DNA of 64,000 bases from Candidatus Kapaibacterium sp. (GTDB lineage: Bacteria; Bacteroidota; Ignavibacteria; Kapaibacteriales; UBA2268): contig OY761611.1 of assembly GCA_963664875.1 (NCBI GenBank), positions 512,001 through 576,000 of the forward strand. Direction: 5' to 3'. The position numbers and the translations under genes are program-made. Below are positions 20,181 to 62,103 of the stretch, in pieces. Within the stretch, counting starts at the first letter, position 1; each line of letters begins with the position of its first letter. The notes beneath the pieces were generated by a model, which made no database searches, had not been told where the DNA came from, and saw nothing but the letters and a program-made list of their open reading frames with translations.

Positions 20181-20192
20181 CAATACAATATT

Positions 20193-20208: not shown

Positions 20209-20219
20209 TCTATCATAGT

Positions 20220-21713: not shown

Positions 21714-21715
21714 AT

Positions 21716-23023: not shown

Positions 23024-23048
23024 CTGCAACTTTATTTCAACTGATGTG

Positions 23049-23168
23049 TTTGTTGTATTGATTCTGCTTTGATAGCTATCTAAATTAAAGAATCAAAACA
23101 GCTTGCTACAAATTTATCGATGGGATACCGATTGTTTGTAGCAAGCCATTATTTCAAAGATTGAATGG
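23049..23168 (+). other. Three tandem hairpins in the intergenic region / 5' leader
   Basis: TTGATTCT/AGAATCAA enclosing palindrome GATAGCTATC; 12-bp stem GCTTGCTACAAA/TTTGTAGCAAGC; TTCAA-AGA-TTGAA. Confidence 0.6.
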
Positions 23169-23180
23169 TAGGTTGTGGTT

Positions 23181-33736: not shown

Positions 33737-33747
33737 TTTATAATTCC

Positions 33748-34176: not shown

Positions 34177-34177
34177 A

Positions 34178-35386: not shown

Positions 35387-36503
35387 TTATTTCATTTGCT
35401 ATTGGATGTTCAACAATAAAACAAGCTCCATCTTTATAGTCTGAGTCAAGTATAATGGTAGCGTCCATCAAGTCCAAATATCTTTTAACTATCGAAAGGC
35501 CGAGCCCGGTAGAATTTTCGTTATTTGTCGGACGGGCTGATAGTTTAGCAAATTTTGTAAATAGTTTTGATTTGTCGTCTTCAGTAAAGCCCTGCCCCTG
35601 ATCTTTTACTATTATTTGTATGTTATTATCAACCTTAACAAGATCAATAAAAACTTTTTTATCAAAAGGCGAATATTTTACAGCATTTGAAATTAAATTG
35701 TCCAATACTTGAGTAATTGCATTCAGGTCAGTATAAATATAAGCGTCATCTGTCTTATCATTTAATTCTATTTCGAGATTTTTTTCTTCACATTGCAATT
35801 TATAATTTGAAATCATTTCTCTTACAAGAGATGCAGGATCTATCATTTCTTTTCGTAATGTAACTTTGCCCTCTTCAATCAAATTTACATTTAGAAGCTC
35901 TGATATTAACTGAAACATTTTACTGCTGGATGTAATAATATCTTGCGCAAATTCTACGACTTCATCTCTTGTTAGGTCTTCTGTATCCCGTAAGATTTTG
36001 CCAAGCATTGTCATTGTATTTATTGGATTTTTCAAATCATGGGCAGCAATGCTTAAAAACTCGCTTTTATCTTGGTTTAGTTTTTCAAGCTGAGTCTTTT
36101 GCTTTTCAAGTGTTTTTAAATATTTTACAATATTCAACTGAGTTTTTACTCTCGCAATTAGCTCAGGTGCTTTAAATGGTTTAGTTATATAATCAACTGC
36201 CCCTAATTCGAATGCTTTGACTATATCTTCTGTTCCAATTTTTGCGGTCAAAAATATTACAGGAATCTTTGAAGTCTTTTCATGCTTTTTAAGCTCCTGA
36301 AAAACTTGAAAACCATCCATCTCCGGCATCATTATATCAAGTAATATCAAATCAGGCTCAATGCGTTTAGATATTTCAATGGCTGATAAACCATTTGTAG
36401 CGATTGAAATATCAGCTTTCAATTCTTTCAAATGAGTGCCCACAACTTGAATATTTGTTGTATTGTCATCTACGATTAGTACTTTAAAATCAGAATAATC
36501 CAT
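35379..36503 (-). CDS. Hybrid REC-histidine kinase
   Basis: LIVDD, LLDIMMP, FLTAK, TKPF; AAHDLKNP; NLISNAVKY; DQGQG; STGLGL. Confidence 0.93.
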   Translation of the reverse strand: MDYSDFKVLIVDDNTTNIQVVGTHLKELKADISIATNGLSAIEISKRIEPDLILLDIMMPEMDGFQVFQELKKHEKTSKIPVIFLTAKIGTEDIVKAFELGAVDYITKPFKAPELIARVKTQLNIVKYLKTLEKQKTQLEKLNQDKSEFLSIAAHDLKNPINTMTMLGKILRDTEDLTRDEVVEFAQDIITSSSKMFQLISELLNVNLIEEGKVTLRKEMIDPASLVREMISNYKLQCEEKNLEIELNDKTDDAYIYTDLNAITQVLDNLISNAVKYSPFDKKVFIDLVKVDNNIQIIVKDQGQGFTEDDKSKLFTKFAKLSARPTNNENSTGLGLSIVKRYLDLMDATIILDSDYKDGACFIVEHPIANEINE

Positions 36504-36521
36504 AACATTCTTCTCTATTTT

Positions 36522-39500: not shown

Positions 39501-39575
39501 CACTCCAAATACTATACCCGGGAAATTAGCATAGCAATTTTCAAATTCTCTAATAGTTTTACTTAGATCTTGCAT
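36522..39575 (-). CDS. Cytoplasmic multi-PAS hybrid sensor kinase
   Basis: Several PAS repeats (W....WS...Y.IF, IHP.D), MSHEIRTPMN, NLIGNAVKFT, GGTGLGL, REC LLDYKMP; no TM; ATG 39575 preferred. Confidence 0.92.
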   Translation of the reverse strand: MQDLSKTIREFENCYANFPGIVFGVIDNKIFYGNIHFKELMGDNFLNCDVSALNTSNQSIIDSLESDFDKSKDNKTRFELNIHGENILLDFSVFKHGVSNITVYVFTDIKSIVNSEYEDSYQVSKQENVYLSRDYDYLRIDSLLDQSSIGIIIFDSNLNVMKSNKKAIKITGISEEKIVKMNIEDLTVGPNKQYRISQYRDLLKTGSVLEYEEDFYFPNGTRKRIFISAFKVNSGLAIFGLDITKIHDARLDLEKKEKLLFEIQRISGIGHWSLNLKNRIITWSENTYKIFDILPNDFDGSVESYLKLIHPNDIQRVRETFQKALTEKISYKVEHRIVTPSAEVKHVIGSGTVIMDNDGNPIQMLGGVQDLTFIRKSQETLITANNIQNKILSSINEAIILVNNSGRIIECNSNLESFFGISKKQVIGKSEKKLFEVIAESLINAEDFLNMISGVFEMPEIEVFDLMYLKNKKIIEYNHKVLIQDGKISYRIWVFNDISDWKKANDKLIWYSSDLEILTNDLEKSKTELENAISEIAEAKMKAEEATAAKSKFLASMSHEIRTPMNAIIGFSEILQNRLADVTDLKYLKYISNAGNSLLELINDILDLSKIEAGKIDIEPDFVNTKNMFDEVIQMFSYKAEQKEIALTITYSDDLAEYLYIDEVRVRQILLNLIGNAVKFTENGSVSVIVNVLENSDYTQSIKVTVQDTGIGIKPESLESIFEEFTQQEGQDAKKYGGTGLGLAISKRLTEIMGGSIYVESQINVGSRFTIELYNLKYKTEIAKADTNDSKIVNYKFDNVKLMIVDDVVYSMEVVKTYYADEGVSVLISDNGEKALELLKKQKYDIVLLDYKMPNMSGKELLIKIKSEESLMSSKVILVSSSSKQEIDMDTLGLIDGFIQKPVHFKALNSLMSDLLPDKITFVEEDESIDVGYNFEILDNIEHYNALYPEIESCLKYFVLSDVKALSKKIIELSEKKKILGLKSYANDLIAALQRFDIENTLKMLHLIDASIKKYKI

Positions 39576-39880
39576 ATTAAAAATCCAATCTGTTATAAGG
39601 TACCTTATCAATAAGGACGCAGAACTCTTCAATAAAATAAATAAAAATTATGAGACTCAAAAAACTAAGTTATTGCCTAGCTAAAGTTATTGAACCACTC
39701 TCTTGTATATTACTATTTAAGACTATAATAAATAAAGAGATATGTGATATTGTCTGATTTACCAAGAGTATCTTTCTATAATGTTTTTTATCTGACTGCA
39801 AAAAACATTTGTATATTATATACATTTAATCTATCTTAGCGTCCTTAATTACAGTATTACAAACTTTGCGGCATAATATT

Positions 39881-42076
39881 ATGACATCATTACTTTACTT
39901 AATTCCCATAGCTGGTATTTTAGGGCTTGGCTATACTATGATGAATTATTATTGGGTATCAAAACAAGATGTTGGCTCGGAAAAAATGGCAAAGATTGCC
40001 AAATACATTAGCGACGGTGCTATGGCTTTTTTGGGGGCAGAATACAGAATACTATCCATTTTCGTTTTGATCGTAGCTATAATGCTTGGATTTCAGGGCA
40101 GTCAGCAGGAAAATTCGCATTGGTTCGTTGCAATTTCATTTGTTTTCGGAGCTTTTTGTTCTGCTTTAGCAGGCTATATCGGGATGAAAATAGCTACAAA
40201 AGCGAATGTTCGTACTACTAATGCTGCTCAAACTTCTCTCAATAGAGCACTAAATGTTGCTTTTAAAGGTGGCTCGGTTATGGGTATGGGAGTTGTTGGA
40301 CTTGGCGTATTAGGACTTAGCACTCTATTTTTAATTTATGCAGCATATTTTGATGCATTCAATACCGGAAAAGACTCTATAGAAACAGTTATCACAGTTG
40401 TTACAGGATTTTCTTTTGGAGCTTCGTCAATAGCATTATTCGCCAGAGTAGGTGGTGGTATTTACACAAAAGCAGCAGATGTCGGTGCTGATTTAGTGGG
40501 TAAAGTTGAAGCAGGTATCCCTGAAGATCACCCTCTAAATCCGGCAACAATAGCCGATAACGTTGGCGATAACGTTGGTGATGTTGCAGGAATGGGGGCA
40601 GATTTGTTCGAATCATATGTTGGATCAATCATTGCAGCTATGGTACTTGGTACTGCTTTTTACAATATTTCTGAACTTCAGACCACTTATTTTGGTTCCT
40701 TATCTGCCATATTGCTCCCATTATTTATCGCAGCGTCAGGAATTTTAGTATCAATAGTAGGTACTTACTTTGTTAGCGTAAAGGAAAACGAGAATCCTCA
40801 AAAAGGTTTGAATAAAGGTACATTTATTGCCTCAGCTTTGATGATTGTCGTCTCGTATTTTATCATTGACGCAATCATGCCATCTGCCTTTATGTTTGAA
40901 GATCCACTCTATGGCACGATTTACGAAATTTCTTCCTTAGGAATATTTTTGTCAACAATAGTAGGTCTTGCTGCAGGTGTTGGAATTGGTCTAATAACAG
41001 AATATTATACCGGTTTAGGGAAAAAGCCTGTAAGAAAAATAGCTGAGAAATCAATCACAGGGCATGCAACAAATATTATTGCAGGGCTGGAAACAGGCAT
41101 GATGTCAACTGCAATACCCGTTTTATTGATTGCAATTTCAATTGTTCTTTCTTTTGATTTCGCAGGTCTATACGGTATCGCAATTGCAGCTGTAGGTATG
41201 TTGGCAACAACCGGCATTCAGTTAGCTGTTGATGCTTATGGTCCAATCTCTGACAACGCAGGCGGAATAGCAGAGATGTCGGAATTACCTCATTCAGTTC
41301 GAAAAATTACTGATAAATTAGATGCCGTGGGAAATTCAACTGCTGCCATCGGTAAGGGTTTTGCAATTGGTTCAGCCGCCTTGACTGCTTTAGCGCTATT
41401 TGGTGCATTTATGACAGCTGCTCATATCAAAACAATCGACATTTCTAAAGCGAATGTAATGGCAGGCTTATTTGTAGGTGGAATTATGCCTTTTGTCTTT
41501 TCTGCTCTCTCAATGGGAGCGGTAGGACGTGCTGCAATGTCTATGATTCAAGAAGTTAGAAGACAATTCAAAAATATTCCGGAATTAAAAGCAGCTTTAG
41601 AAGTCATGCGTAAAAATGAAAATACGGAAATGACTGATTGGACAGTTGAAGATTTAGCAGTATATCATAATGCCGATGGAAAGGCAGAATATGCTAAGTG
41701 CGTCGAGATTTCTACAAAAGCATCTATTAGAGAGATGATGCTTCCGGGACTTTTGGCAGTAATTGTACCTGTTGTTGTCGGATTTGTCTTCAAAGCTGAA
41801 GCATTAGGCGGGTTGCTTGCCGGTGTTACAGTAAGTGGTGTATTGCTTGCAATCTTTCAATCAAATGCAGGCGGTGCTTGGGACAATGCCAAAAAAATGT
41901 TTGAAGAAGGTATAACAATTGACAATGAAGTTTACAAGAAAGGTTCTGAGCCACATAAGGCTGCCGTTACCGGAGATACTGTCGGCGATCCGTTTAAAGA
42001 TACTTCAGGGCCATCTTTGAATATTCTAATTAAGCTTATGTCAATAGTTTCTTTAGTCATCGCAGCTTCAATATAG
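39881..42076 (+). CDS. hppA: Membrane ion-translocating pyrophosphatase, K+-dependent, probably Na+-pumping
   Basis: [59 protein letters not shown]. Confidence 0.95.
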
Positions 42077-47920: not shown

Positions 47921-49003
47921 CTAAAATTCCATATAAAACGATATATGATGCGAAAGGTTATTATCAGTAAGTGAACTATTGGCAACAGAGTAATCTATAT
48001 GCAGATTGAATGGAATATTCAAATCATTTTTGTCAGGTCTGATTGATATTCCTGCCCCCCAATTATTCATAGGAAAGAATTTAGAGTTTCCCATATCATC
48101 TCCATATATATCAATACCGGCTCTGAATGCAAGCATTTCATGAAACACTATCTCACTTCCAAAAATGAAAGACGGATTTTCTTCGTATTGTCTAAGAACT
48201 GCATCTAATGATATTACGATGTACCTTGTAGGTGGTAAATATACTTCCTCTATTTCACCGTCTATTGTTGATCTGGTTTGGTATTTTTCATCATTAAGTC
48301 CATATTCCATAGCTATTCCACTACGTACCGAATATGGCAAATACTCATAATCTTTATTTGCATTATTCCAAAACATAATCCCCGAAATATTCTGAACAGC
48401 AACTCCAAAAGAGAACATATCCATCACATCAAATTTTGTTCCGACATCAAGCCCGTATCCGGTAGAATTAATATCAGAACCAATAAGATTATTAGTAAGA
48501 TACTTCACATTAAATCCAATTGCAGCATCATCTATTGTATAGGCACCAGCCAAATTCACAGCATATTGTAGTGCAGAAAAATCTCCCAAAGGATTGCCCA
48601 TAACATCCCTGCCTTCAAAACTTCCTGTAGAAAAAGTATTAATACCAATCCCCACACCTAATCTTGGATAAATAGACTGTGCCCATGCAACTGAAGATTG
48701 TGTTCTACCCCTTCCTAAAGAAGAAATGCCTCCAGCGACTTGCGGTTTGTTAGCCAAAAATGCTAAACCTGCAGGATTACAAAATATAGCATTGGGATCA
48801 TTTACTACTGCCGTGTAGGCTCCTCCCATAGAAATGGCTCTTCCACCTACGTCTCTCAGTAGATATGCTTCGCTATATCCTCCGCCGGCTATCTGAGCAA
48901 ATAATGATGAAGATGCAAAAAAGCAAGTTATAAATATGATAGCAACATAAAAAATGCCATGCATTTGTAGCATTGCTTCAGATTTTTTATGTATAATACT
49001 CAT
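47921..49003 (-). CDS. PorV/PorQ-family (FadL-like) outer-membrane barrel
   Basis: GGRAISMGGAYTAV.ND.NAIF.NPAGL, G.D.G, FGVAVQNI, RAG; terminal HHISFYMEF; ATG 49003 preferred. Confidence 0.82.
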   Translation of the reverse strand: MSIIHKKSEAMLQMHGIFYVAIIFITCFFASSSLFAQIAGGGYSEAYLLRDVGGRAISMGGAYTAVVNDPNAIFCNPAGLAFLANKPQVAGGISSLGRGRTQSSVAWAQSIYPRLGVGIGINTFSTGSFEGRDVMGNPLGDFSALQYAVNLAGAYTIDDAAIGFNVKYLTNNLIGSDINSTGYGLDVGTKFDVMDMFSFGVAVQNISGIMFWNNANKDYEYLPYSVRSGIAMEYGLNDEKYQTRSTIDGEIEEVYLPPTRYIVISLDAVLRQYEENPSFIFGSEIVFHEMLAFRAGIDIYGDDMGNSKFFPMNNWGAGISIRPDKNDLNIPFNLHIDYSVANSSLTDNNLSHHISFYMEF

Positions 49004-49005
49004 AT

Positions 49006-49443
49006 TTACCTCGATATGATAAACTTTTCTGTATCTCTTTGTCCATTTGCAGATTGTAGTACACAAATATAAATTCCGTTAGGTATTTTAGATATGTCGA
49101 AGCTAATTTCTTGATTCGAAGATACTTTATGTTTTTTATCTAAATCAAGGACTTTTTTGCCTAACATATTGAAACACTTTATGCTAAATTCTAAATCTTT
49201 ATCTTCTACTTCAATTTTGATTGTCAGCCTTTCTGCAGACTGATCAATATTGACCTTTTTGATTTCAAAAACCTTAGAAATAGTATCTAATTTAGCATTT
49301 TTTGTATTTGTATGCTTATCTTCTTTAGAACTATCAAAATATATGCCATTAAGTGAGACTGAGTGTGATTTGAGTTGTAATGAGTGTACTGTAGTAGCTG
49401 ATAGAAATGAAATACATAAAAGTAGATAGTAGAAAAACATCAT
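49006..49443 (-). CDS. Small exported protein consisting mainly of a T9SS type-A CTD
   Basis: Signal peptide MMFFYYLLLCISFLSA; FNMLGKKV...FDISKIPNGIYICVL...EKFII. Confidence 0.78.
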   Translation of the reverse strand: MMFFYYLLLCISFLSATTVHSLQLKSHSVSLNGIYFDSSKEDKHTNTKNAKLDTISKVFEIKKVNIDQSAERLTIKIEVEDKDLEFSIKCFNMLGKKVLDLDKKHKVSSNQEISFDISKIPNGIYICVLQSANGQRDTEKFIISR

Positions 49444-49447
49444 TTGT

Positions 49448-51064
49448 TTACTCTTTTTTGTTGAACTTTTTAGCCAATTCTTTGATAGCCTTTTCATCAC
49501 TCATAATGTCCTGAACGTTCTTCTTTGTTTCAATCGAAGCTTTGCCGGTTCCCAATTCTTTTGCAAGCTTATCTAATTCATCTTCGGATAAGTTATCTAA
49601 TTGACTTAATTTTAGGTTCTTTTGCTTCAATTCTTCTTCAGAGATTTTGATTGCCAGTTGCATCTTTGCAGATAAACCTGAGTAATCTTTGACTTCCGGC
49701 TTCTGACTTGGTTTATTATTAATACGTAATGCTTCGATGATTTGTTCAATCTTCTTTGCACGGCTATCTCGTCCGGTTGCTTTTTCTTCTTTCCCGGTGG
49801 CTTTTGAAACAGTTTCGGGATTTTTTTGAGAGCTTCTATTTTCTCCAAATTGAGAATATGCCTTTTGTGCTTGCAATACTTCAGCGCTAAAGGATGTTTT
49901 ATTTTCTAGATTTCTTTCTTTTTTTATCTCTTCTTTTGAATCATTTTCTTTTGGAATAGTCTTTTCAACCGTTTTCTTTCTAACTTCTAAACCTTTTTCA
50001 ATTTCAGATTTTAGATCTTCAGATTCAACATGATATTTACTAGCCTTCTCTTTGCGCTCATCTATTTTTCTTTTCTTCTCACTAAATTCTTTTAATGCTA
50101 ATATCTGCCTGTTTCTCCAACGCAAATACATATATACTACAGAAAGAGAAAGAATAAGTACCCCATAAAGTAAGTATTCTGTCCACCAAGGAAAGCCATA
50201 AAAATCTTTGAATAACAGGCTTGATAATGCACTACTATCAGCCTTAGCTGCCGAATCTTCCGGGAAAATGTTTTTAAATCTTTCTTCTGCTATTTTTTCT
50301 TCAGCCGTTTTTTCGTTTTTATTATTTATTTCTAAAGAGAGAAACTTGTCTTTAGAAGCATCAAAATAGCTATTCAAAGAGTCAATGTGTTTTTTTTGCA
50401 GGGATATATTCTTTAGCCCTGTAAATTCAGACATCTTCTGCAAGAAATAGTTCAACTTCAGAGTGTCTTTAGTACGTTTCGCAAAGGATGTTAACACTGC
50501 CAAATGAAGAGGCATATCGGACTTCCCAAAGGCATTGAAAGCAGCGTCAATTGCATTAGTAAAATTATTATTAGCAAGCTCTATTTCTGCAATCATATCA
50601 AATGAGTTTTTATATTTTGAATTACTCAGATCATCTAATGCCACGTCAGCAATCCCTGATTCATAAGCAAGTAAAGCATTACGGTATAAATCCTCCTGCT
50701 TGTCTATTTTTGACCAGCTAAAAGTTTCGATAGCCATCAGGTTCAATGATTTGATAGGAGCAATAGTATAGCCTGACTGTTCAGAAAGATTGATATAAAT
50801 ACTTAGCTTATTATTTTTGAATACCCAATCAATCTGATTGATGTTTCCTTTGCCCGTAAGGCTAGTTATTTGACTTTTGTTGTCAGTATCAGGCACGGAT
50901 ATGATAATTTGTCTTTTATTTTCTGAAAGAGTAGATGTAGCAGCAGCCGGATATTTGTCAAATTTCAAAAATATTCTATTTTCTTTAGTAGCAGAGACTT
51001 CCAATAAACTCTCCGCTTGAAGAACCAATGGGAAAAATAACAATATGTAAAGAAGTTTATACAA
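49448..51064 (-). CDS. Bitopic membrane protein: AMIN-like periplasmic N-terminus, TPR-like helices, TM, charged cytoplasmic tail
   Basis: Signal peptide; RIFLKFD...RQIIISVPDT; TM WWTEYLLYGVLILSLSVVYMYL followed by RWRNR; K/E-rich tail. Confidence 0.65.
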   Translation of the reverse strand: MYKLLYILLFFPLVLQAESLLEVSATKENRIFLKFDKYPAAATSTLSENKRQIIISVPDTDNKSQITSLTGKGNINQIDWVFKNNKLSIYINLSEQSGYTIAPIKSLNLMAIETFSWSKIDKQEDLYRNALLAYESGIADVALDDLSNSKYKNSFDMIAEIELANNNFTNAIDAAFNAFGKSDMPLHLAVLTSFAKRTKDTLKLNYFLQKMSEFTGLKNISLQKKHIDSLNSYFDASKDKFLSLEINNKNEKTAEEKIAEERFKNIFPEDSAAKADSSALSSLLFKDFYGFPWWTEYLLYGVLILSLSVVYMYLRWRNRQILALKEFSEKKRKIDERKEKASKYHVESEDLKSEIEKGLEVRKKTVEKTIPKENDSKEEIKKERNLENKTSFSAEVLQAQKAYSQFGENRSSQKNPETVSKATGKEEKATGRDSRAKKIEQIIEALRINNKPSQKPEVKDYSGLSAKMQLAIKISEEELKQKNLKLSQLDNLSEDELDKLAKELGTGKASIETKKNVQDIMSDEKAIKELAKKFNKKE

Positions 51065-52363
51065 CTATTTGACTCCGGGAAAACTTAATTTGAAAGTAGT
51101 GCCTCTTCCCTGTTCCGTTAGGACAGATATTCTGCCATAATGCTGCTCTATTATATATTTTGAAATATATAAACCCAATCCATGCTGCAAAGAATCTACA
51201 GAATATGGCTCAAATATATTACTAATAATCTCATCATCAATGCCTATGCCGTTATCAGATATATTGATTGATATCCGGTTGCCTTGATTAGAATAAACTC
51301 CAATTTTAATAGCTCCACCATCAGGCATATATTTTGAAGAATATAAAATTAGATTCATTATTGCCTGTTCTAAGTGTGGTTTGATTGCCAATATTCGAAT
51401 TTCATCATCTTCATAATCAGAAACCAACTCAATACCTTCTCTTTCTAATTTGTTTTTCGTAAATAGAATTACTTCATCTATCACAGAACATATATTCAGA
51501 GATTCAATTTGTTCTTTTGAGAAATCTGAAGCAGCAATTTTTTTGATTCTACTATTGAGCTTATAAATTTTATTAATTTCATTTTTGATAACATCTATTC
51601 TTTTTTGGGGATTGCCAACACCACTTTCCATTAGGTCTAAGTTCGTATTTATAACCATCAATGGCGCCTCAATCTCTTCTGAAAATGAAGCAGTAAGCTC
51701 ACCAAGTGATGAAAACTTTGCAGATTCAAGCATTCGTTTATTAAGTAAATCCATTCTTCGGTTGAGATTGGCAATAGTATCTAAGGATAGAATATTAAAA
51801 GCAGCAGCTGCTGCATTTTCAGCTATCATCTCTATTTCGTCAATATCTTCTTTATTAAAGTCATTAGCTGCAAGTGGGGTTTTGCCTATAAAAATACCAA
51901 AAGCCTCACCTGCAAGTGCAATTGGAGAAAGAAAGAAATAATTGCTTTCTTCCGGGGAAATTGTATTGGGGATTATTGAAGTCTCTTTATTTTCACAAAT
52001 CCAGTCTAAAATTCCTTCTTCTTCTAAACTCATCATATCCTTTATCAGATTACTCTCTTCATTCATTGAGTAATCTATTTTTCTATCTTTGTCTGTTCTA
52101 AATATTGTGCATTCTACTAAGTCAAACATTTTGGAACAAAACGCCTGAAGTGCTTGCAATATATCATCAGTAGAAGAATAATTCAGAAAGTCTATATCTA
52201 CTTCATGAGGCAAAGCGGATGGTGTGATTATTTGCGGAGAAGTTTTTATGTTTTTCCTTAAATCATCAACTTCCTTTCTAAGAATTTTCACAGATAGCTC
52301 TAAAGATTTAATATAATCTTCCTGAGCTTTAGCAATATCAGTATTTTGTTTTTGCTTTGCCAT
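51065..52363 (-). CDS. GAF + NtrB-type histidine kinase homologue lacking the phospho-His (pseudo-kinase)
   Basis: SSLGELTASFSEEIEAPL aligns to LGEL.A..AHEINNPL; DNGIGI, IFEPY and GLGL retained. Confidence 0.82.
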   Translation of the reverse strand: MAKQKQNTDIAKAQEDYIKSLELSVKILRKEVDDLRKNIKTSPQIITPSALPHEVDIDFLNYSSTDDILQALQAFCSKMFDLVECTIFRTDKDRKIDYSMNEESNLIKDMMSLEEEGILDWICENKETSIIPNTISPEESNYFFLSPIALAGEAFGIFIGKTPLAANDFNKEDIDEIEMIAENAAAAAFNILSLDTIANLNRRMDLLNKRMLESAKFSSLGELTASFSEEIEAPLMVINTNLDLMESGVGNPQKRIDVIKNEINKIYKLNSRIKKIAASDFSKEQIESLNICSVIDEVILFTKNKLEREGIELVSDYEDDEIRILAIKPHLEQAIMNLILYSSKYMPDGGAIKIGVYSNQGNRISINISDNGIGIDDEIISNIFEPYSVDSLQHGLGLYISKYIIEQHYGRISVLTEQGRGTTFKLSFPGVK

Positions 52364-52368
52364 ATTTT

Positions 52369-53325
52369 TTAAGCTATAGATTTAGTAGAAAAAGATTTAA
52401 AAACTGATGCTTTTTCGAATTCTTCAGTCAATTCTTGTTTTAAAATAGTAAAAGCACTGTTTTTATCCAAAAAATCAGAATCATCTTCCCCGTCAAATAT
52501 CTCATTTGATAGATAAAGCGGAGCAGGCTTTTTGTCCATCGACCAAGACATATAGCCCATTTGCTTTGCAAACCACTCTGACATGGAGACAATAGCTGTC
52601 AACGGTTCATCAATTGCACCAAAAGCAGTGTTATCAGAGTTAGCTTGAATATCTTTACCATCTTTAACTTTTTCTTCTAATATATCCATAAAATATGTAT
52701 GGTGATTAGATATAGCATTACACAATCTATCAGGTAAGTTCCATTTTTCTGCAATCCATGCACCTATTTCTGCATGTGTTGTTTCCAATATTTCTTGCTC
52801 TGCTTCCGGTAAAGACAAAGATTTTGTTTCTTGTATTTCTCTTATTTTGACAAAATCAGTATGAAATGATTCGACTAATACCAACACACCTATATCATGC
52901 ATCAAACCGGTAACAAATGCCTCTCCGGCAAGTCTGTATCCTAACTTTCGAGCAAGTACTCTGGAAGATGTACCGCAAAAAACTGAATACTGCCAAAAAG
53001 AATTTACGTCAAATGATGACTTTTGGATTTTACTGAAAAACTTCTGTATTATTAAGCTCAAAATGATTTCTTTAATTGTATTGAGCCCCATAACCACTAC
53101 AGCTAAATCTATTGTTGATATTTTTCTGGCAAAGCCATAAAAAGGAGAATTCGCTACTTTTAAAACCTTTAGAGTTAGGGACTGATCATTTTCAATTATT
53201 TTTGCCAAACTTGCAGCACTAACATCAGGATTGTCTAATGCAGACAAAACCTGCGACATAACTGTTGGTATCGTAGGCAAATCTTTTAGAGACTCTAATT
53301 TTCTTTGTACCTTTTTACTAAGCAT
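52369..53325 (-). CDS. HDOD domain protein
   Basis: LPTIP, D..LT.KVLKVANSPFYG, AF..GLMHDIG, HAEIGAWIAEKWNLP, AI.NHH. Confidence 0.93.
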   Translation of the reverse strand: MLSKKVQRKLESLKDLPTIPTVMSQVLSALDNPDVSAASLAKIIENDQSLTLKVLKVANSPFYGFARKISTIDLAVVVMGLNTIKEIILSLIIQKFFSKIQKSSFDVNSFWQYSVFCGTSSRVLARKLGYRLAGEAFVTGLMHDIGVLVLVESFHTDFVKIREIQETKSLSLPEAEQEILETTHAEIGAWIAEKWNLPDRLCNAISNHHTYFMDILEEKVKDGKDIQANSDNTAFGAIDEPLTAIVSMSEWFAKQMGYMSWSMDKKPAPLYLSNEIFDGEDDSDFLDKNSAFTILKQELTEEFEKASVFKSFSTKSIA

Positions 53326-54106
53326 TTTGAAATTCTTTCATTTTTTTTCTGAGATCTTTCATAACCTGACTGTGTATCTGACAAACTCTACTTTCCGATA
53401 CATCAATAAGCTTACCAATCTCTTTGAATGTTAGCTCTTCATAGTAATACAATGTAATAACTAATCTTTTCTTTTCCGGTAAATTTTGTAGATGTAAAAC
53501 TAAATGGTCCAATTTTTCTTCGTTTGTAATGGCATCTAAAGTTGATATTTGATCGTTGTCAGGAATCTCTTCCATCAGGTTTACATCATTATCATCAATA
53601 TTAAGAGGCATACTAAAAGATTCGTTCATAGAAAGAGAAGCTTTAGCAGCAGCAGCTGCAGCTAAGTAAGAATGGTACTGTTCGGGAGTTACCTGCAATT
53701 TCTTCATTATTTCATCAGGACTGATATCCGAACCTTTTTCAGTTCTCAGTTGGTCACTTGCATTGATGTATTCCGTTGCTTTTTTCCTTGCAGTCCTCGA
53801 AAGCCAATCTAATTTCCTTAATTCATCTTGAATAATTCCTCTGATTCTCGGGATTGCATACGATTCAAATTTCACCCCTCGTTCAGGGTCAAATCTTTTG
53901 ATAGATTCGTATAATCCTAAAATACCAAAATTCAGGAAATCATCCTCAGCGAGAAATGAATTACCGGGTAAGTGCATCTGCTGAATTACATATTTAATAA
54001 GCCATACATAATTCAAGACCAATTTATCCAAAGCATCTTTATCTTCATAAGAAGACTGAAACAATCTGTTCCACTCTTGGGTCATATCTACATTTTTTTT
54101 AGACAT
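53318..54106 (-). CDS. fliA: FliA/WhiG family sigma factor (sigma28)
   Basis: G..GL...I.RFDPERGVKFESYA.PRIRG.I.DELR.LDW; LYYYEELT.KEIG...VSESRVCQIH. Confidence 0.93.
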   Translation of the reverse strand: MSKKNVDMTQEWNRLFQSSYEDKDALDKLVLNYVWLIKYVIQQMHLPGNSFLAEDDFLNFGILGLYESIKRFDPERGVKFESYAIPRIRGIIQDELRKLDWLSRTARKKATEYINASDQLRTEKGSDISPDEIMKKLQVTPEQYHSYLAAAAAAKASLSMNESFSMPLNIDDNDVNLMEEIPDNDQISTLDAITNEEKLDHLVLHLQNLPEKKRLVITLYYYEELTFKEIGKLIDVSESRVCQIHSQVMKDLRKKMKEFQNA

Positions 54107-54125
54107 ATATTCTTATAACCCCTTT

Positions 54126-54974
54126 CTATTCATTTCTTCCATGTTTTTCAATATCCGGATAATCTTCTAAAGGAATAAATTCTTTCATTTGATTACCATC
54201 GGATTGAGCCTCTTCACTGTCTTCCATTTCTAAATCCATTTCAGGATTTGGAATATTTGTACTCTTGTTTTGTCCGGTTTTGGCATTTGTATTTACATCG
54301 CCAAGCTCTAAATCTATATCATATTTTTCTTTAGGTTCTTTAAATTCCGGCAAAGTAGGATTATCTAAATCTGTTTCTCCTAACATCTCGTTTATGATAC
54401 TGCCGGTAACCTCATCATTAGAAGCCTGCAGCTCTTTTTGAGTTTTATTTTTCAATTTCAGAGTTTCAGCCATTCTTCTTTCTTTAATCTCTTTTTCTAA
54501 GTCTTGCAGCTCTTGTAGTTCTTGCTGTTTAATCAGATCTTCTTCTACTCTGAGATTCATTTCTTCCTGTTTAGCCATTTCTATTAACTCAAGCTTTTTA
54601 TCTTCAGCTAACATATAGACATAAACAGACATCGCTCCGCCAAAAACCAAATATTGAACAAGCAATAAAAATGCTGTCCATTTTACAATGGATATTATAC
54701 TCATATCTGTAACAAATAAGAAAAAGATAAGAATCAGTAGAGTCAACATTGATATTACAAGATTTAGTATCTTATAAGGAAAATTTATCTCTTTTCTAAT
54801 TCTTTTCTTTTCTTGCTTGATTTTCTTATTTAGCTTAGCTTCTCGGCGCTTTTTGCGTTTATCGCGTTCCTTTTTTCTTTTTTCACGCTCAGCAAGCTCC
54901 GCTTTCTCAAGAGCTAATCTTTCCTTTTCCCTCTTCTTTTCTTCAGGCGTCATTTGTTTTTTTTCTGCAGCCAT
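54126..54974 (-). CDS. Hypothetical two-TM protein with basic N-terminus and acidic C-terminus
   Basis: K/R/E-rich first ~60 aa, two TM helices, coiled coil, D/E-rich tail. Confidence 0.75.
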   Translation of the reverse strand: MAAEKKQMTPEEKKREKERLALEKAELAEREKRKKERDKRKKRREAKLNKKIKQEKKRIRKEINFPYKILNLVISMLTLLILIFFLFVTDMSIISIVKWTAFLLLVQYLVFGGAMSVYVYMLAEDKKLELIEMAKQEEMNLRVEEDLIKQQELQELQDLEKEIKERRMAETLKLKNKTQKELQASNDEVTGSIINEMLGETDLDNPTLPEFKEPKEKYDIDLELGDVNTNAKTGQNKSTNIPNPEMDLEMEDSEEAQSDGNQMKEFIPLEDYPDIEKHGRNE

Positions 54975-55027
54975 AAGTCTAAACCTGAATTAGTGGGCAA
55001 TCCTTTGCCGTAATAAAAAAAACGATA

Positions 55028-55840
55028 CTATCTTTGTTGTATTTTTGAAATAATTGAAGATGCAATTTTTGATATCGCGTAATATACCTCAGAATCTCTA
55101 TATGCATCTATAAATAAATTTTGATTTAGAATCGATTGACGAATATTTCGATCATACGGTACATATCCAAATATAGCAAATTTATTGTCTAAAAACTCTT
55201 TTGTTGCCGAATTTAGTTTTGTAGAAATGTCTTCTGCGTCTTCATAATCAATAACATTGTTAACTAATAGTTGTATCTTGTCATCTGCGACGTGGTCGCG
55301 CAATATTTTTATTAACGCATAAGCATCAAGTAAACTGGTTGGTTCATCAGTTACTGTTACAACAGTTAAATCTGATATTCTGCATGTATTTAGTACCTCA
55401 GAAGATGCCCCGGCAGCAGTATCAAATATAATAAAATCATAATCACTTTCTGTAATTATCTCTGCAAATGCCGGCAATATTGCACTCCCGTCAAAAATAT
55501 CCCTTCCGGTAGAAATTGGAATATCAGCAATCAAATCGAGGTTGTTGCCAATATTAAAAATAGTTTGTGAGGCAGACACTCTCCCTGCGTATAAATCAGT
55601 TGCTCTTACAGGAGGTTCCACGCCGAATATTAAATGCAAATTTGGAAATAGCATATCTGTATCCCAAATAAGAACTTTGCAATCCTTTTGAGACAGAGAT
55701 TTTGCAATATTTGCGGATAAGACACTCTTGCCTACTCCACCTTTACCGCTGCAAACAGTAATAATGTAGGGAAGTTGCTTTTCTACAACTGCAGTTTGTT
55801 TGTTATATATATGCTTTTCGTTCATATTATATAATATCAT
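55028..55840 (-). CDS. flhG: FlhG/FleN-like MinD-family ATPase
   Basis: SGKGGVGKS deviant Walker A, DTAAG, EPTSLLDAYALIK; directly downstream of flhF. Confidence 0.88.
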   Translation of the reverse strand: MILYNMNEKHIYNKQTAVVEKQLPYIITVCSGKGGVGKSVLSANIAKSLSQKDCKVLIWDTDMLFPNLHLIFGVEPPVRATDLYAGRVSASQTIFNIGNNLDLIADIPISTGRDIFDGSAILPAFAEIITESDYDFIIFDTAAGASSEVLNTCRISDLTVVTVTDEPTSLLDAYALIKILRDHVADDKIQLLVNNVIDYEDAEDISTKLNSATKEFLDNKFAIFGYVPYDRNIRQSILNQNLFIDAYRDSEVYYAISKIASSIISKIQQR

Positions 55841-56954
55841 CAGGAAGAATTATTTTACTTAACTTTGCACGATCAGCCGGTTCTAAATCCTCTGGTATCT
55901 TTTGTCCTGATGAGACATAAACCAGAGGCAAATCGGTTCTAGAAAGAATTGGCAATATCGAGCCAATCTCTTCTGTTTCATCAAGTTTTGTCAAAATCAG
56001 TCCATTAGGTTTAAACCTGTCATATATCTTTAGCGATTTCTCAAATGTATGCCTATTGACCGCTGCGCTTTCTACAAGGTAAACTATGGCGTTAGGCACT
56101 GCATCTAAAAATAACTTTAACTCATCTAAATGCTCAGTATCCTTATAGCTTTTACCGGAAGTATCGATAAAGATAAAATCTCTTTTCTCTTCTTCATTTA
56201 TTAAGTTTTTCAACTCATCAGGAGAATAGACAGACTTAAAAGGCATCGAAACAATTGACGCAAATGTCTGTAACTGTTCTGCTCCTCCTACTTTATATGT
56301 ATCAGCAGATACTAACAAAATATTTGCTTTCGAGAGTATTTTATTTACAACAGCTATTTTGACTAATGTACTTGTCTTTCCAACACCGCTATGTCCTATA
56401 AAAACAACTATTTGCCTTTGATCTTTTTTAATCAGAGGTCGCATTGTGTCTAATCTTTCAACAATAACCTTTCTGGCTAATGCATAAGCTTCTTCATATT
56501 TTGCATTGGAGTTATAAGCAGATACTCTTGCCACAACTTCAATTGCATATTTCTCAATAAGTCCGCCATCGATAAGTTTTTTATATAGTTTTGCAAACCC
56601 CTCATTTAAAAAACTCTTATAATGATATTTCATATTTTCTGAAATATCCAGTACTAAATCTTTCAATGCTTCAATCTCACTTTTGATATCAGTATTATAT
56701 GAGCTTGAGAATTGGTCATTATTGTCAGATTTTTTTCGACTTAATGCATTGATTAAAGCAGATCGTTTATCATTGGCTGGTTTTATATTGTCTTGCTTAT
56801 CATCAGTAGCTGCTACAATTTCGACTCCTTCTCCACCGGTCTCAGGATTGATGATTGATCTAGATGACAAGATAACTGCATCCTCACCAAGTTCGGCGAG
56901 AATGTGTCTTTTGCCTTCAGACAGAGTGTTTGCTATATACTTTTTTATTTTCAT
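55827..56954 (-). CDS. flhF: Flagellar SRP-family GTPase FlhF
   Basis: MKIKKY.A......I..ELGEDAVILS N-terminus, G.GKTST, EQL, TKLDET, GQKIPEDL. Confidence 0.92.
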   Translation of the reverse strand: MKIKKYIANTLSEGKRHILAELGEDAVILSSRSIINPETGGEGVEIVAATDDKQDNIKPANDKRSALINALSRKKSDNNDQFSSSYNTDIKSEIEALKDLVLDISENMKYHYKSFLNEGFAKLYKKLIDGGLIEKYAIEVVARVSAYNSNAKYEEAYALARKVIVERLDTMRPLIKKDQRQIVVFIGHSGVGKTSTLVKIAVVNKILSKANILLVSADTYKVGGAEQLQTFASIVSMPFKSVYSPDELKNLINEEEKRDFIFIDTSGKSYKDTEHLDELKLFLDAVPNAIVYLVESAAVNRHTFEKSLKIYDRFKPNGLILTKLDETEEIGSILPILSRTDLPLVYVSSGQKIPEDLEPADRAKLSKIILPDDII

Positions 56955-56984
56955 AACTAATCTTGTAAATTTTTACTCAAAGAC

Positions 56985-57000
56985 AGAAAAAATCGTGCCA
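56985..57000 (-). promoter_or_regulatory. Sigma54-like promoter upstream of flhF
   Basis: Minus strand TGGCACGATTTTTTCT: perfect -24 box TGGCACG, -12 variant TTTC, 30 nt upstream of the ATG. Confidence 0.55.
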
Positions 57001-58686: not shown

Positions 58687-61600
58687 TTACTTTACAAATT
58701 TCGTTGACTTATTCGAAGACCCATTTATGATATCTAAAATATATACACCTTTTGGATAATTAGCAAAAGGTATATCAAGATTCTCAGAAACAGAATCAAA
58801 AATATGATCATTAGAATAAACCACTTCTCCAAGCAGATTGGATATTCTGACAAATGTTCTTTGATTTGATGCATTTGTGATTTGAATATGCAAATTATTT
58901 ACGACAGGGTTTGGAGATACAGATAAAACAATATCCGAATTATACTTCTCGAAAACTGAAGTAGAAGATATTTTTATTTCCTCGATATTAGAAATTCCGG
59001 TCTGTAAATTATCTACGTTATCTGATGCAATTGTATAGAATTTAAAAATAGAATCTCTTTCTTTATCAATTGGAAAATCTATATTTTCCTTGTAAGATTC
59101 ACCAAATAGCTGATATGGAGCATTGTTGATTGAGCCGAATAAATAATATTTTCCTATTCCTGAACCTGATTTATTGTCCTGACCTGCTAACAATATTTTG
59201 AGCTCATTTTCCCCATGAGTATAACCAATAGGGTTGATTGTTGCCACAGGTGAAACATTGTCGATTATATTTATCCAAGTATTTGTTTGGATAGGCTCGT
59301 TTATATCAAAAATAATTGACGCACTATTTTTTATCTCGATTCCGGAATACACCGATTCCTTAAGAGCAACTGAGAAATCAACCCAGCCTTCACCTTGCGG
59401 AGGTGTAATATTTGGTTCTAATTCTATTCCCTCTATATACCACCTCAACACGTTTCCGTTCCTATCTATTTGCCAATCGTATTGACTACCTTCGTGACTT
59501 TTTCTTCCAAACTTAACAGTACTTAGATCAAATATCTCAGCATCTAAGGTATCCAGTATTTCTATTCTATAAGCTGCTGCACCGGCATCCTTAACATTTT
59601 CAAATTGTATTCTGTAGTTGACGACAGATAATTCTTTTACAAAATTTCGTTGTCCATGTCCGTTGGGACCTACAATTGCATTAGGATCTCGAGAAGTAAC
59701 TATTTCTTTCTCTTTGGTCTGAACAGTAATCGGTTCTGTCTTTTTATCAATTCCATAAAGCCCGAGGTCCTTATTGATCCAATGAAATATTCTTCTTCGA
59801 TAAGAATCACTAATTTTATGCACAAATTCTGCAGCACTACCTATTTTAAATAAGACTTTTGAAACAGGATTAGTATTTGATATTTTTTCTGCTACATATT
59901 TTACCGCGGTCTTAAGTACAAAGACACCTTTCCCTTCTTTCTTTTTCTTAGTTTTCAATTGGCTTACAGTCAAATTCATCGCCCGTGCGTACTCTTTGTA
60001 TTCTTCATCGCTAAGCTCGGCGAAATCACTTAGTTCTTTAGCTATATAGTCTTCTGCTTTTTCTTTACCGAGTTTCTTTCCAAAACCTGCCAATGTTAAT
60101 CTTTGAACTCCGGATAAAGTGTGATTACTAACAGAACCAATATTAGGTAAGCCTTCGACAATTACATCAAAAGAGTATTCTTCTAAAGGTCCTAAGTACG
60201 GTACAAGAAAAACTAATGCATCTTCCCTATTGCCTATTGAATCTATAGGTATTAGCTCTAAATCTCCGTTTGTTGGCAATTCGACTCCGGTAAAATGGAT
60301 TTGATCTGTATTGTCAAAACATAGTATAAACGGTTGGGTTTCAGTTTTAGAAACATTGAACAGATTTATAGTAAACCTTGTTGGTGCTGCTATCCTTACG
60401 TCATTGCGTCCTGTATAATTCATATATATTGGGGATTCAATAGGAACTCCTGCCTCTACAGAACCTATAACAAAGTCACCAAATGCAGTTAAATGTGACT
60501 CTACTTTGTTAGAAACCCCTATCTGAAAATAGTTTTCTTCTTTATTATGCTCTACAAACTCTCCGAAACTAATAAGCTCCCAACTTGTACCTTGATCAGT
60601 ACTATGAAAAACATTCAAATCGTCTTCATTCAATCCATCCAAGTCTTTATCTTCATAATGCAATGTCATAATGTAACTGTAATTTTGCAATTCACCTATA
60701 GGCTCAATCCGCCACCATCTACTAATAGTTCCTTCGATATTAGGATATTTTTGCTGATATGTAGTTATTTCTGTCCCTTTATAAATCCCATCCCAGTTTC
60801 TAAGTTGATAGTATAAGAAACTTTCGTTCGGAGAATCAAAGGTGTTGTAGCTCCACGAATTATTTACATAATGGACTCTATAAAAATCACCATCAATATT
60901 AAATTTTGCCCCATTATTACTAATATAAAGTGAGCTTCCAGATTGATTATCCAAATATAACGTAGTATTTATAGGAACTTGCAAATCTGCATAAAGTTCT
61001 AATTTACCGGCAATATGAGTATTTCCAAATATACTATAGCTGCCACCCGGGGCTTTGTAATCTTCGTTGTAGATATAAACATTAGACTGAAAATCTCCAC
61101 CAAATAGTCTGTTTTCATTTTTGGTATAGAGGTAAAGATTAGATATTCCTGTACTACCGTAGTTATAGCAATCTCCGATTACTGAAATTTTAAAGCTTAT
61201 CGGTGCAACTAAATTCCCATCGACAAGTAATGTATCATGGCTCAATAAGCCATAATTATAAAATTTTCCGGTTACGTTAATTGGCGTAAGATGTTTACCT
61301 GATGATACCACAACATTATCGTCCACCGTAAAGTCGCCTACGATTTCCATATGCTTAATAATTGCAAAAGTCGGACTTTTGATTGTTATATTTCCGTCTA
61401 TTGTCCCGTATAATATAGACTTATCAATATTAAAGACAGAACTATTTGTTTGAATCCTTACCCTAAAATCAGAGTTGGTATTGAATGTATTATAATAGCC
61501 GTCATAAGTAGGTTCATCACCGGTTAAAAACACATCATATCCATCTAAATTAAGCATTTGCTGAGGATTAGAACTGGAAGTAACAATTGTATTTTTAAAC

Positions 61601-62103
61601 TTAAGATCGGAAATAGCTATTGCAGGATTTTTTGTATTTATATTAAAAGAACTACATTCTATATAGTTTTCTGTTAATATTGTAGCATTATCTCCGTTGA
61701 GCCTGATGTAACGAGGACTTAGCGTGCCATAATTTTTTAAATTGCCATTGATGTCTATATCAAAATAGTCATCATAATCAACAATTTCTCCATAATTAGT
61801 TAAATTACCTGCAATATTCAAAGAAGATAGTCCAGAAGAGTTTTCCAATCTGATAACTTTGCCGTTTGGTTCAATATTCAAATTATTCATTCTGTAAGTT
61901 TTAGTTGAATAGCTTTGACCCGGACAATAAATCGTAGAATTGATTAAAACGTCGTCTGCTTCAGTAGGTACAATATTTCCAACCCAAGAAGCGGGATTAT
62001 CCCAATTACCTCCAACAGGTGAACTGGTAATAGTCTTTGACACAACAAACATGGTATTTGTAATGATTATTACAAATATCAAGGGTAGCAATCTGATTCG
62101 CAT
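58687..62103 (-). CDS. Large multidomain T9SS-secreted protein
   Basis: Signal peptide; GNW.NP.SW.G..P...DDV.I head; beta-helix-like region; ISRWWRI module; SRDPN..GP, YRIQFEN, NSASIIFD.NEPI.TN Ig module; CTD SPNP..NLLGEVV..GVYIL..KFVK. Confidence 0.85.
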   Translation of the reverse strand: MRIRLLPLIFVIIITNTMFVVSKTITSSPVGGNWDNPASWVGNIVPTEADDVLINSTIYCPGQSYSTKTYRMNNLNIEPNGKVIRLENSSGLSSLNIAGNLTNYGEIVDYDDYFDIDINGNLKNYGTLSPRYIRLNGDNATILTENYIECSSFNINTKNPAIAISDLKFKNTIVTSSSNPQQMLNLDGYDVFLTGDEPTYDGYYNTFNTNSDFRVRIQTNSSVFNIDKSILYGTIDGNITIKSPTFAIIKHMEIVGDFTVDDNVVVSSGKHLTPINVTGKFYNYGLLSHDTLLVDGNLVAPISFKISVIGDCYNYGSTGISNLYLYTKNENRLFGGDFQSNVYIYNEDYKAPGGSYSIFGNTHIAGKLELYADLQVPINTTLYLDNQSGSSLYISNNGAKFNIDGDFYRVHYVNNSWSYNTFDSPNESFLYYQLRNWDGIYKGTEITTYQQKYPNIEGTISRWWRIEPIGELQNYSYIMTLHYEDKDLDGLNEDDLNVFHSTDQGTSWELISFGEFVEHNKEENYFQIGVSNKVESHLTAFGDFVIGSVEAGVPIESPIYMNYTGRNDVRIAAPTRFTINLFNVSKTETQPFILCFDNTDQIHFTGVELPTNGDLELIPIDSIGNREDALVFLVPYLGPLEEYSFDVIVEGLPNIGSVSNHTLSGVQRLTLAGFGKKLGKEKAEDYIAKELSDFAELSDEEYKEYARAMNLTVSQLKTKKKKEGKGVFVLKTAVKYVAEKISNTNPVSKVLFKIGSAAEFVHKISDSYRRRIFHWINKDLGLYGIDKKTEPITVQTKEKEIVTSRDPNAIVGPNGHGQRNFVKELSVVNYRIQFENVKDAGAAAYRIEILDTLDAEIFDLSTVKFGRKSHEGSQYDWQIDRNGNVLRWYIEGIELEPNITPPQGEGWVDFSVALKESVYSGIEIKNSASIIFDINEPIQTNTWINIIDNVSPVATINPIGYTHGENELKILLAGQDNKSGSGIGKYYLFGSINNAPYQLFGESYKENIDFPIDKERDSIFKFYTIASDNVDNLQTGISNIEEIKISSTSVFEKYNSDIVLSVSPNPVVNNLHIQITNASNQRTFVRISNLLGEVVYSNDHIFDSVSENLDIPFANYPKGVYILDIINGSSNKSTKFVK

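Follow-up and report, generated by a model that had tools for sequence, protein, structure and literature searches.

The 64,000-nucleotide (nt) stretch of DNA analysed here, hereafter the window, comes from Candidatus Kapaibacterium sp. (contig OY761611.1, positions 512,001 to 576,000 of the forward strand). Its positions 47921-56954 are filled by nine co-oriented open reading frames (ORFs) on the minus strand, which start with a flagellar regulatory module (flhF, an flhG-like gene, a gene for a two-helix membrane protein and fliA) and continue with five further genes, the last two of which encode proteins of the type found in type IX secretion systems (T9SS). The nine proteins were assigned to families by HMM (hidden Markov model) scans with Pfam and with TIGRFAM/NF models at their curated cut-offs; some assignments, given with each entry, come from AlphaFold2 (AF2) models, from Foldseek or from position. 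Together with a promoter box ahead of the first gene, the features are:

56985..57000, minus strand: sigma-54-type promoter box TGGCAC-N5-TTTCT upstream of flhF, one mismatch to TGGCAC-N5-TTGCW
[quoted passage not shown]
55028..55840, minus strand: g2, FlhG-like MinD/ParA ATPase without an N-terminal DQAxxLR motif (ParA/CbiA/AAA_31 matches)
54126..54974, minus strand: g3, FlgV-like protein of 282 amino acids (position and architecture; no family match)
53318..54106, minus strand: g4, FliA/sigma-28 (TIGR02479; sigma-70 regions 2, 3 and 4)
52369..53325, minus strand: g5, HDOD protein (PF08668)
51065..52363, minus strand: g6, cytoplasmic histidine-kinase-like protein lacking the acceptor His (HATPase_c)
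49448..51064, minus strand: g7, bitopic membrane protein of 538 amino acids with AMIN-like and TPR parts (AF2 model, Foldseek; no family match)
49006..49500, probable start 49443, minus strand: g8, secreted protein of 164 amino acids consisting of a T9SS C-terminal domain (CTD) only (PF18962, TIGR04183)
47921..49066, probable start 49003, minus strand: g9, PorV/PorQ-family outer-membrane barrel (NF033709, AF2 model)

With longest-ORF starts, the junctions range from a 61-nt overlap to a 53-nt gap. The flhF and flhG-like genes overlap by 14 nt, gaps of 53 and 19 nt separate flhG from g3 and g3 from fliA, fliA and the HDOD gene overlap by 8 nt (53318-53325), 5 nt lie between the HDOD gene and g6, g6 and g7 abut, and g7/g8 and g8/g9 overlap by 53 and 61 nt; if an internal Met ahead of the signal peptides is taken as the start, a few nt separate g7 from g8 and g8 from g9 instead. 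A terminator scan of the 10 kb returned 7 sites, compared with 4.1 ± 2.0 in shuffled sequences, all of them intragenic or on the other strand and none at a minus-strand gene junction. The divergent upstream neighbour is fumC, and the convergent downstream neighbour is a TPR-glycosyltransferase gene. A first-pass annotation, made by a model from the letters of the window, had described nine tightly packed co-oriented genes without an obvious internal terminator and with fumC as divergent neighbour, and on each of these points the ORF annotation and the scan agree with it. The G+C content of the window is ~33%; that of Ignavibacterium album is given as 34% in its genome report (PMC3362086).

The conservation of this arrangement was assessed with an FlhF-alignment scan of one genome per GTDB species, which gave at least 80 loci with 10-kb flanks, the ORFs of which were searched with the nine window proteins and then with HMMs built from the first matches. 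Twenty-eight loci are of Ignavibacteria/Kapabacteria/Chlorobiota type (hereafter lineage loci); 17 of these reach at least 5 kb past the HDOD gene and 9 end too early. All nine genes are present in the same order at 9 of the 17 (L001, L004, L013, L014, L018, L053, L065, L071 and L080), the FlhF proteins of which are 75, 43, 39, 34, 41, 39, 34, 36 and 31% identical to that of the window, respectively. One locus (L011) carries g1-g6 only, and at the other seven (L002, L010, L012, L015, L020, L032 and L069) g1-g5 are followed by genes that are unrelated according to Pfam. At these loci, g7-g9 never occur without g6 (9/9), and g6 and g7 abut or overlap in most cases. The tight spacing is kept as well: of the 72 junctions over the nine full loci, 71 measure no more than 101 nt and the remaining one no more than 177 nt. 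All-against-all clustering of the ORFs in the 28 loci brought out no tenth conserved gene, the sole other recurrent family being an IgGFc_binding+CTD protein (6 loci). What lies upstream differs from one locus to the next: in the seven full loci with 10 kb of annotated upstream DNA, the neighbours are housekeeping genes (fumC/nuo, CCA-adding enzyme, transketolase, gcvH, aconitase, lysS), and no flagellar genes were found within that distance. The first-pass annotation had taken the nine genes as one unit and had named a lack of synteny of the last three in relatives as the observation that would speak against it; with about half of the informative loci keeping all nine, the unit holds.

The remaining 52 loci, mostly from Acidobacteriota, have fliA directly after flhF and contain no homologs of g3, g5, g7, g8 or g9. 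Two of these outgroup loci were annotated and have flhB-flhA (and fliP/fliR) upstream, i.e. the usual flagellar arrangement flhB-flhA-flhF-fliA. In a quick maximum-likelihood tree of FlhF, FlhG and FliA, the deep branches of which are poorly supported, the nine-gene loci are spread across the whole ingroup with at least 4 state changes, which suggests that the long form is old and has been lost or moved several times. Note that several loci carry titles that are not to be trusted: L004, L010, L011, L020, L023 and L069 are labelled Hyphomicrobiales and L014 Chloroflexota, whereas their gene content and the tree place them with the Ignavibacteria/Kapabacteria type. Two of the lineage loci, L005 (613-2744) and L007 (9926-12042), show a different, solitary FlhF arrangement: after an FlhF-like gene of 36-37% identity comes one of the BrkB/YihY family, and no FlhG, g3, FliA or HDOD homologs were found.

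Ahead of flhF, we found the box TGGCACGATTTTTTCT (57000-56985, minus strand), 31-46 nt from the ATG and with a single mismatch to TGGCAC-N5-TTGCW. In the window itself, boxes with at most 2 mismatches are not commoner than in shuffled sequences (31 versus 24 ± 5). Nevertheless, 19 of 26 related loci have a box of this quality no more than 230 nt from the flhF start. Among control windows the proportion is 5.2% (179 of 3437), and among shuffled upstream segments it is 1.5%. The form common to the loci is TGGCA[CT]-N5-TTT[TC]CT; the sigma54-like box proposed earlier is thus present, and its position is conserved. At L009, a sigma-54 activator gene lies immediately upstream of flhF. Operons of flhF-flhG-fliA type in polar flagellates are described as being, as a rule, under sigma-54 control. 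A scan for sigma-70 promoters was uninformative (38 sites versus 43.5 expected) in this lineage, which has other promoter types. Since gene order, tight spacing and the sigma-54-type box are all conserved, operon-level co-regulation of the flagellar regulators with the T9SS-type genes is the half of the first-pass reading that is supported.

FlhF and FlhG set the site and number of flagella, and sigma-28 drives the late flagellar genes; SRP-type GTPases are marked by a P-loop and by DTxG and TKLD motifs. The translation of g1 carries all three (GHSGVGKT, DTSG, TKLD) and matches the SRP54 GTPase domain (PF00448) with 122 bits and the FlhF model TIGR03499 over its full length with 171.1 bits, just below the cut-off of 174.15 (E 5e-50). 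Its relatives number 1267, many of which are called FlhF by their sources; the closest are four proteins at 75-79% identity, followed by a broad set at 35-46%, and the named sources are Ignavibacteria, Kapabacteria and metagenome-assembled genomes (MAGs) titled 'Bacteroidetes/Chlorobi'. The g4 product scores 205.6 bits with TIGR02479, above the cut-off of 189.6. The g2 product matches ParA, CbiA and AAA_31, with the MinD models below their cut-offs, and has a deviant Walker A motif, SGKGGVGKS (KGGxGK[ST] type), a P-loop of the MinD/ParA kind. A g2 homolog lies immediately 3' of flhF at 26 of the 28 lineage loci. The N-terminal DQAxxLR motif of FlhG, described as activating FlhF in other species, is found neither in the window protein nor in 27 orthologs from these loci.

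The third gene, left as 'X' by the first-pass annotation, gave no family match in the HMM scans and only chance-level matches in a sequence search of the PDB. [quoted passage not shown] K motif at the C-terminus of most rows and Y-L-G-x-G in TM2. FlgV is described as the product of a gene between flhG and fliA with two transmembrane helices, a polar disordered tail and a short C-terminal hydrophobic/basic peptide; the most plausible identity of g3, from description and position, is that of a FlgV-like flagellar protein. It differs from FlgV by its long K/E-rich N-terminal extension, and the 19 rows show neither an Arg inside TM2 (spirochete type) nor GFFxG in TM1 (Campylobacterota type). The nearest neighbours of g3 in the Atlas, which are leads only, are unnamed clusters of 130-180 amino acids from Bacillota, Spirochaetota and Campylobacterota, with scores of 0.76-0.79. 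Ignavibacteria, Bacteroidetes and Chlorobi are not among the phyla listed with FlgV in the FlgV survey.

The first four genes, as a whole, thus have the identity and order of the flhF-flhG-flgV-fliA module of Campylobacterota, Spirochaetes, Bacillota and others, with the same kind of small third protein with two transmembrane helices, a polar tail and a short C-terminal peptide. In contrast to the superoperons in which that module is found, the one in the window stands apart from flhA/flhB and other structural genes, its FlhG-like protein is without DQAxxLR, and five further genes follow.

The five additional genes begin with that of the HDOD protein g5 (PF08668, 215 bits). Its ORF overlaps the end of fliA by 8-20 nt at 19 of the 19 lineage loci that reach past fliA, even at those lacking g6-g9; the Acidobacteriota loci have no HDOD homolog after fliA. 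The next protein, g6, matches HATPase_c (76 bits) and has a GAF-like N-terminal region and helices like those of dimerization and histidine phosphotransfer (DHp) domains, with no HisKA match in Pfam. None of 10 homologs has a His at the H-box position, where residues such as E, S, K, A or I stand instead, and the G1 and G2 boxes are kept in most; its nearest PDB relatives, the KinB and ZraS cores, are ordinary kinases. The description of this protein as a His-less kinase was correct and extends to all ten homologs. At L004, two ORFs (4981-6003 and 6029-6331, together 4981-6331) take the place of a single g6 homolog, owing to a frameshift, a sequencing error or decay of the gene in that MAG.

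The AF2 model of g7 has pLDDT values >90 over approximately residues 20-245, a beta-sandwich followed by TPR-like helices. The order of parts is a signal peptide, this periplasmic AMIN-like and TPR portion, a transmembrane helix from residue 293, a charged linker modelled with low confidence and C-terminal helices, which form a conserved region of ~85 amino acids. The top Foldseek match is chain 9hmf_K, from the flagellar periplasmic scaffold of Campylobacter jejuni (E 3.8e-4, TM-scores 0.14/0.10); 9leq_A, the N-terminal domain of PflA, ranks lower (E 0.036), and matches were also obtained to the AMIN domains of PilQ (4aqz, B2 domain) and AmiC (4bin), both with probability 1.00. Pfam found no AMIN domain (PF11741) in the window protein, and among 90 relatives it found TPR in 23 and AMIN, weakly, in 6 (best E 4.7e-4), so the name AMIN-like, given earlier, is right at the level of the fold. 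Among 1.84 billion sequences, the family has 240 representatives at E ≤0.001, nearly all of 480-600 amino acids and matching end to end. No polar-landmark families (LysM, FimV, DUF2802) were found by Pfam in g7 or the 90 relatives, and the Atlas gave no match for residues 440-538. The idea that the C-terminus is a membrane-tethered FlgM-like anti-sigma domain was dropped as unsupported, with no FlgM or anti-sigma Pfam match in 90 members at E ≤1.

In g8, the CTD is the sole domain. It matches Por_Secre_tail (PF18962) with 40.9 bits (cut-off 27) and TIGR04183 with 34 bits (cut-off 23). In the alignment, an apparent signal peptide, hydrophobic in 10 of 10 rows, is followed by a short motif G[IT]xFD...DT and then by a type A CTD, as in a substrate-type protein. 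The best-conserved distal protein is g9, 44-74% identical among 10 orthologs. It reaches 107.3 bits with the PorV/PorQ family model NF033709 (cut-off 90) and remains far below the equivalog cut-offs for PorV (NF033710, 38.5 versus 250) and PorQ (NF033711, 73.9 versus 220), which points to a PorV/PorQ-family paralog that is neither PorV nor PorQ proper. Its AF2 model is a barrel with a pLDDT of only ~75; Foldseek matches it to FadL (E 1e-9), and the best TM-scores to PorV chains are 0.54/0.56 (8gl6_F) and 0.50/0.54 (6h3i_F). Sequence searches of the PDB gave no match for g8 or g9. A co-fold of g9 (residues 58-381), g8 (41-164) and the periplasmic part of g7 (18-290), run without controls, gave scores of 0.03 and 0.01 where the mark is 0.32, which speaks neither for nor against binding. 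The term 'T9SS components' of the first-pass annotation is overstated: the genes encode a substrate-type CTD protein and a PorV/PorQ-family paralog, and none of the core families SprA/Sov and PorK/L/M/N (GldK/L/M/N) was found among 44 ORFs of the 64-kb window scanned with Pfam.

Other T9SS-type ORFs of the window are two type A CTD proteins (23175-25664 and 58687-62103) and a DUF5723 barrel (21716-23023). The first and the last of these belong to a plus-strand run (18036-25664) of two unknown ORFs, the DUF5723 barrel and then an IgGFc_binding+CTD protein (23175-25664). Homologs of the latter lie on the same strand immediately upstream of flhF at L003, L004, L011 and L080, and nearby at L053 and L007, which makes a second association of flhF with T9SS cargo that recurs among loci.

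With respect to the host, I. album has a cluster of 71 flagellar and chemotaxis genes according to its genome report (PMC3362086), and flagellar genes are described for Ignavibacterium, Melioribacter and OPB56 (PMC7203096). At L015, fliS, fliD and flaG lie upstream of flhF-flhG-g3-fliA-HDOD (5857-9097), with a VapB/ParE-type toxin-antitoxin pair between flaG and flhF. This indirect evidence favours a flagellated host.

The cluster also occurs in two MAGs titled Chloroherpeton (complete at L065; L035 ends after g3), and the cultured Chloroherpeton species glides and is reported to have no flagellar genes (PMC3362086). That the cluster is kept in a non-flagellated glider was considered and then dropped after a search with the L065 FlhF: among the best 120 of 145 matches, no chromosome-size contig exceeded 39% identity, and the longest contig with a close relative measured 217,854 bases. 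From this, we would say tentatively that cultured C. thalassium probably lacks this flhF and that both MAGs probably come from other organisms; if anything, the C. thalassium pattern would loosely fit loss of the module along with flagella.

Overall, we read the locus as a FlhF/FlhG-like/FlgV-like/sigma-28 operon, driven by sigma-54 in a flagellated bacterium, in a long form with a trans-envelope signalling or anchoring branch; as a whole, we hold this at just under an even chance. The best reading of the distribution is that the long form is specific to the Ignavibacteria-Kapabacteria-Chloroherpetonaceae lineage. The operon would come on through a sigma-54 activator, after which the place and number of flagella would be fixed by FlhF and the FlhG-like ATPase; the FlgV-like protein would join the basal body in the MS-ring region, and sigma-28 would turn on the late flagellar genes. 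We are less sure of g5-g9, which may form a regulatory branch acting on sigma-28, on FlhF/FlhG or on both. Its cytoplasmic end would be the HDOD protein, presumably coupled to fliA in translation, and the adjoining kinase-like ATPase without acceptor His; g7, the gene of which abuts g6, would carry information across the inner membrane; and g8 with its dedicated PorV/Q-type barrel g9 would be the periplasmic and outer-membrane end. The g8 protein would be an export substrate of the T9SS that stays bound to g9, in the manner of uncleaved PorA on PorV, and a share of it in the periplasm could attach to the TPR/AMIN part of g7; the g7 tail, g6 and the HDOD protein would relay this state to sigma-28 or FlhF/FlhG. 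The flagellar sigma factor or the placement system would thereby receive a report on the envelope or on type IX export. The T9SS-style parts would be accessories here, not the secretion machine itself.

A more specific version of this branch, which we regard as rather doubtful, is a trans-envelope checkpoint in which the CTD-only substrate partitions between the g9 barrel at the surface and the AMIN-TPR part of g7, and in which the g7 tail, with g6 and the HDOD protein, gates sigma-28 or the FlhF/FlhG switch. If this were the case, late-gene expression or flagellar placement in flagellated bacteria of the Fibrobacteres-Chlorobi-Bacteroidetes (FCB) group would be tied to the outer membrane or to type IX export, unlike what occurs with FlgM export.

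The proposed branch has its closest precedent, as far as our comparison goes, in the PorA-PorY-PorX-SigP pathway of Porphyromonas gingivalis, by a resemblance of logic and not by membership. There, the CTD of PorA is described both as a T9SS export signal bound by PorV and as a periplasmic ligand activating PorY-PorX-SigP, and PorV is reported to hold the full-length, uncleaved CTD protein PorA (PMC12152298, PMC7712824). PorA is the only experimental precedent for a CTD as ligand. Common to the two systems are a small protein with a type A CTD, a barrel of PorV type, a sensor of kinase type and, as output, a sigma factor. The P. gingivalis genes, however, are scattered and encode a normal membrane histidine kinase, a response regulator and a sigma factor of the extracytoplasmic function (ECF) type, with T9SS genes as output. 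In the window, by contrast, the sensor is a separate protein from the soluble kinase-like part, which has no acceptor His; a response regulator is missing, sigma-28 stands in place of the ECF factor, and an HDOD protein comes in addition.

Several points weigh against the reading of the locus as a flagellar operon with a signalling or anchoring branch. No experiment or computation presented here backs a contact between any two of the nine proteins. With g6 lacking the acceptor His in 10/10 homologs and no response regulator in the operon, a phosphorelay of PorY/PorX type cannot have been copied one to one, and the sigma factor is a group-3 sigma-28 and not an ECF one. The FlhG-like protein is without the motif that activates FlhF in other species. 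At 7 of 17 loci, fliA and the HDOD gene are present without g6-g9, so the distal four are dispensable for the core or encoded elsewhere. The match of the g7 fold to a flagellar scaffold fits a structural as well as a signalling role. With three of them in 64 kb, CTD proteins are frequent in this genome; a cargo/carrier pair beside any one operon of a single genome is not rare. Finally, the evidence on the host's own flagellar structural genes and core T9SS spans the 64-kb window.

The main rival is that the distal genes encode a structural landmark or scaffold: the AMIN domain of g7 would attach to peptidoglycan at the septum or the pole, and g7, together with g8 and g9, would mark or brace the site of the FlhF-placed flagellum, while the HDOD protein and g6 would be separate regulators. 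It would make g7 a functional analogue of HubP/FimV/FipA or of PflA/PflB. The genes of HubP/FimV and FipA lie with or near flhF/flhG, and their products are membrane proteins that combine a wall-binding domain in the periplasm with a long cytoplasmic portion; g7 would resemble HubP/FimV in its overall architecture; it has AMIN and TPR parts in place of LysM and, as noted above, no FimV or DUF2802 match. With PflA/PflB of the C. jejuni motor, it has in common a periplasmic beta-sandwich followed by TPR helices, which the confident part of the AF2 model predicts and which the Foldseek matches 9hmf_K (the best) and 9leq_A reflect, beside those to PilQ and AmiC. The TM-scores of 0.14 and 0.10, however, mean that only domain types are common, sequence similarity is lacking, and g7 adds a transmembrane helix and a conserved cytoplasmic domain. 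The high conservation of g9 is what one would expect of a structural part; on the other hand, g7-g9 are missing from 7 of 17 related loci, and a landmark leaves it unexplained that g8 is nothing but an export signal. We consider this explanation unlikely.

Alternatively, the genes may be co-transcribed and functionally separate, g6-g9 or g8-g9 being an ordinary T9SS cargo/carrier set with its own sensor, through which a surface property is switched together with swimming and which has no action on the flagellum or on sigma-28. PorQ-PorZ and PorV-PorU of the T9SS attachment complex pair a PorV/PorQ-family barrel with a CTD-retaining protein; the pair in the window differs from them in that g9 is under both equivalog cut-offs, g8 is a CTD only, and both are encoded in a flagellar regulatory operon. 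The repeated presence in this genome of CTD proteins (23175-25664, 58687-62103) and of barrels of PorV/DUF5723 type (21716-23023), the loci without g6-g9 and the tendency of IgGFc_binding+CTD cargo to adjoin flhF as well would all agree with a separate function. Against it, order and spacing are kept down to 31% FlhF identity while all flanks change, g6 and g7 are abutting or overlapping in most loci, and g7-g9 do not occur without g6 at these loci; we judge a separate function to be quite improbable.

Least likely, in our view, is the other half of the first-pass reading, that FlhF, FlhG and sigma-28 have been repurposed to place or control a T9SS-dependent envelope structure instead of a flagellum: while it could draw on the lack of flagellar Pfam families in the 35 other window ORFs scanned (64 kb) and of flagellar genes 10 kb upstream of the seven full loci, on the missing FlhF-activating motif and on the two Chloroherpeton-titled MAGs, it is unsupported and very unlikely given fliS-fliD-flaG upstream of the same module at L015, a third protein resembling FlgV, a lineage described as flagellated, and MAGs that are probably not the cultured glider.

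Taken as a flagellar operon with an added trans-envelope branch, the locus combines a known module, its first four genes, with an extension of HDOD, His-less kinase, AMIN-TPR, CTD-only and PorV/Q proteins that we have not found in print; in the literature searched, we found no link of flhF or fliA to T9SS or PorV, nor this cluster in Ignavibacteria. Much work on FlhF/FlhG and sigma-28 exists for Proteobacteria, Campylobacterota, Bacillota and spirochetes, and hardly any for the flagellated members of the Bacteroidota-Chlorobiota-Ignavibacteriota group, to which the operon offers five candidate new flagellar regulators or accessories, including the undescribed g7 family (~240 representatives). 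It would be the first genetic link of flagellar regulation to T9SS-type parts and might add to PorA a second instance in which a secretion signal domain takes part in signalling, and the culturable relatives Ignavibacterium and Melioribacter make it testable.

Elsewhere in the window, the minus strand carries four hybrid histidine kinase/response regulator genes (29542-39632), with two small ORFs (33748-34191 and 34178-35386) without family match. Also on the minus strand, a single ORF (27907-29160) encodes both a shikimate dehydrogenase N-terminal domain and shikimate kinase and adjoins genes for 5-enolpyruvylshikimate-3-phosphate (EPSP) synthase and chorismate synthase. On the plus strand, an H+-pyrophosphatase gene (39866-42076) is the sole stretch of raised G+C content (0.40 versus ~0.33) and has a positive GC skew.

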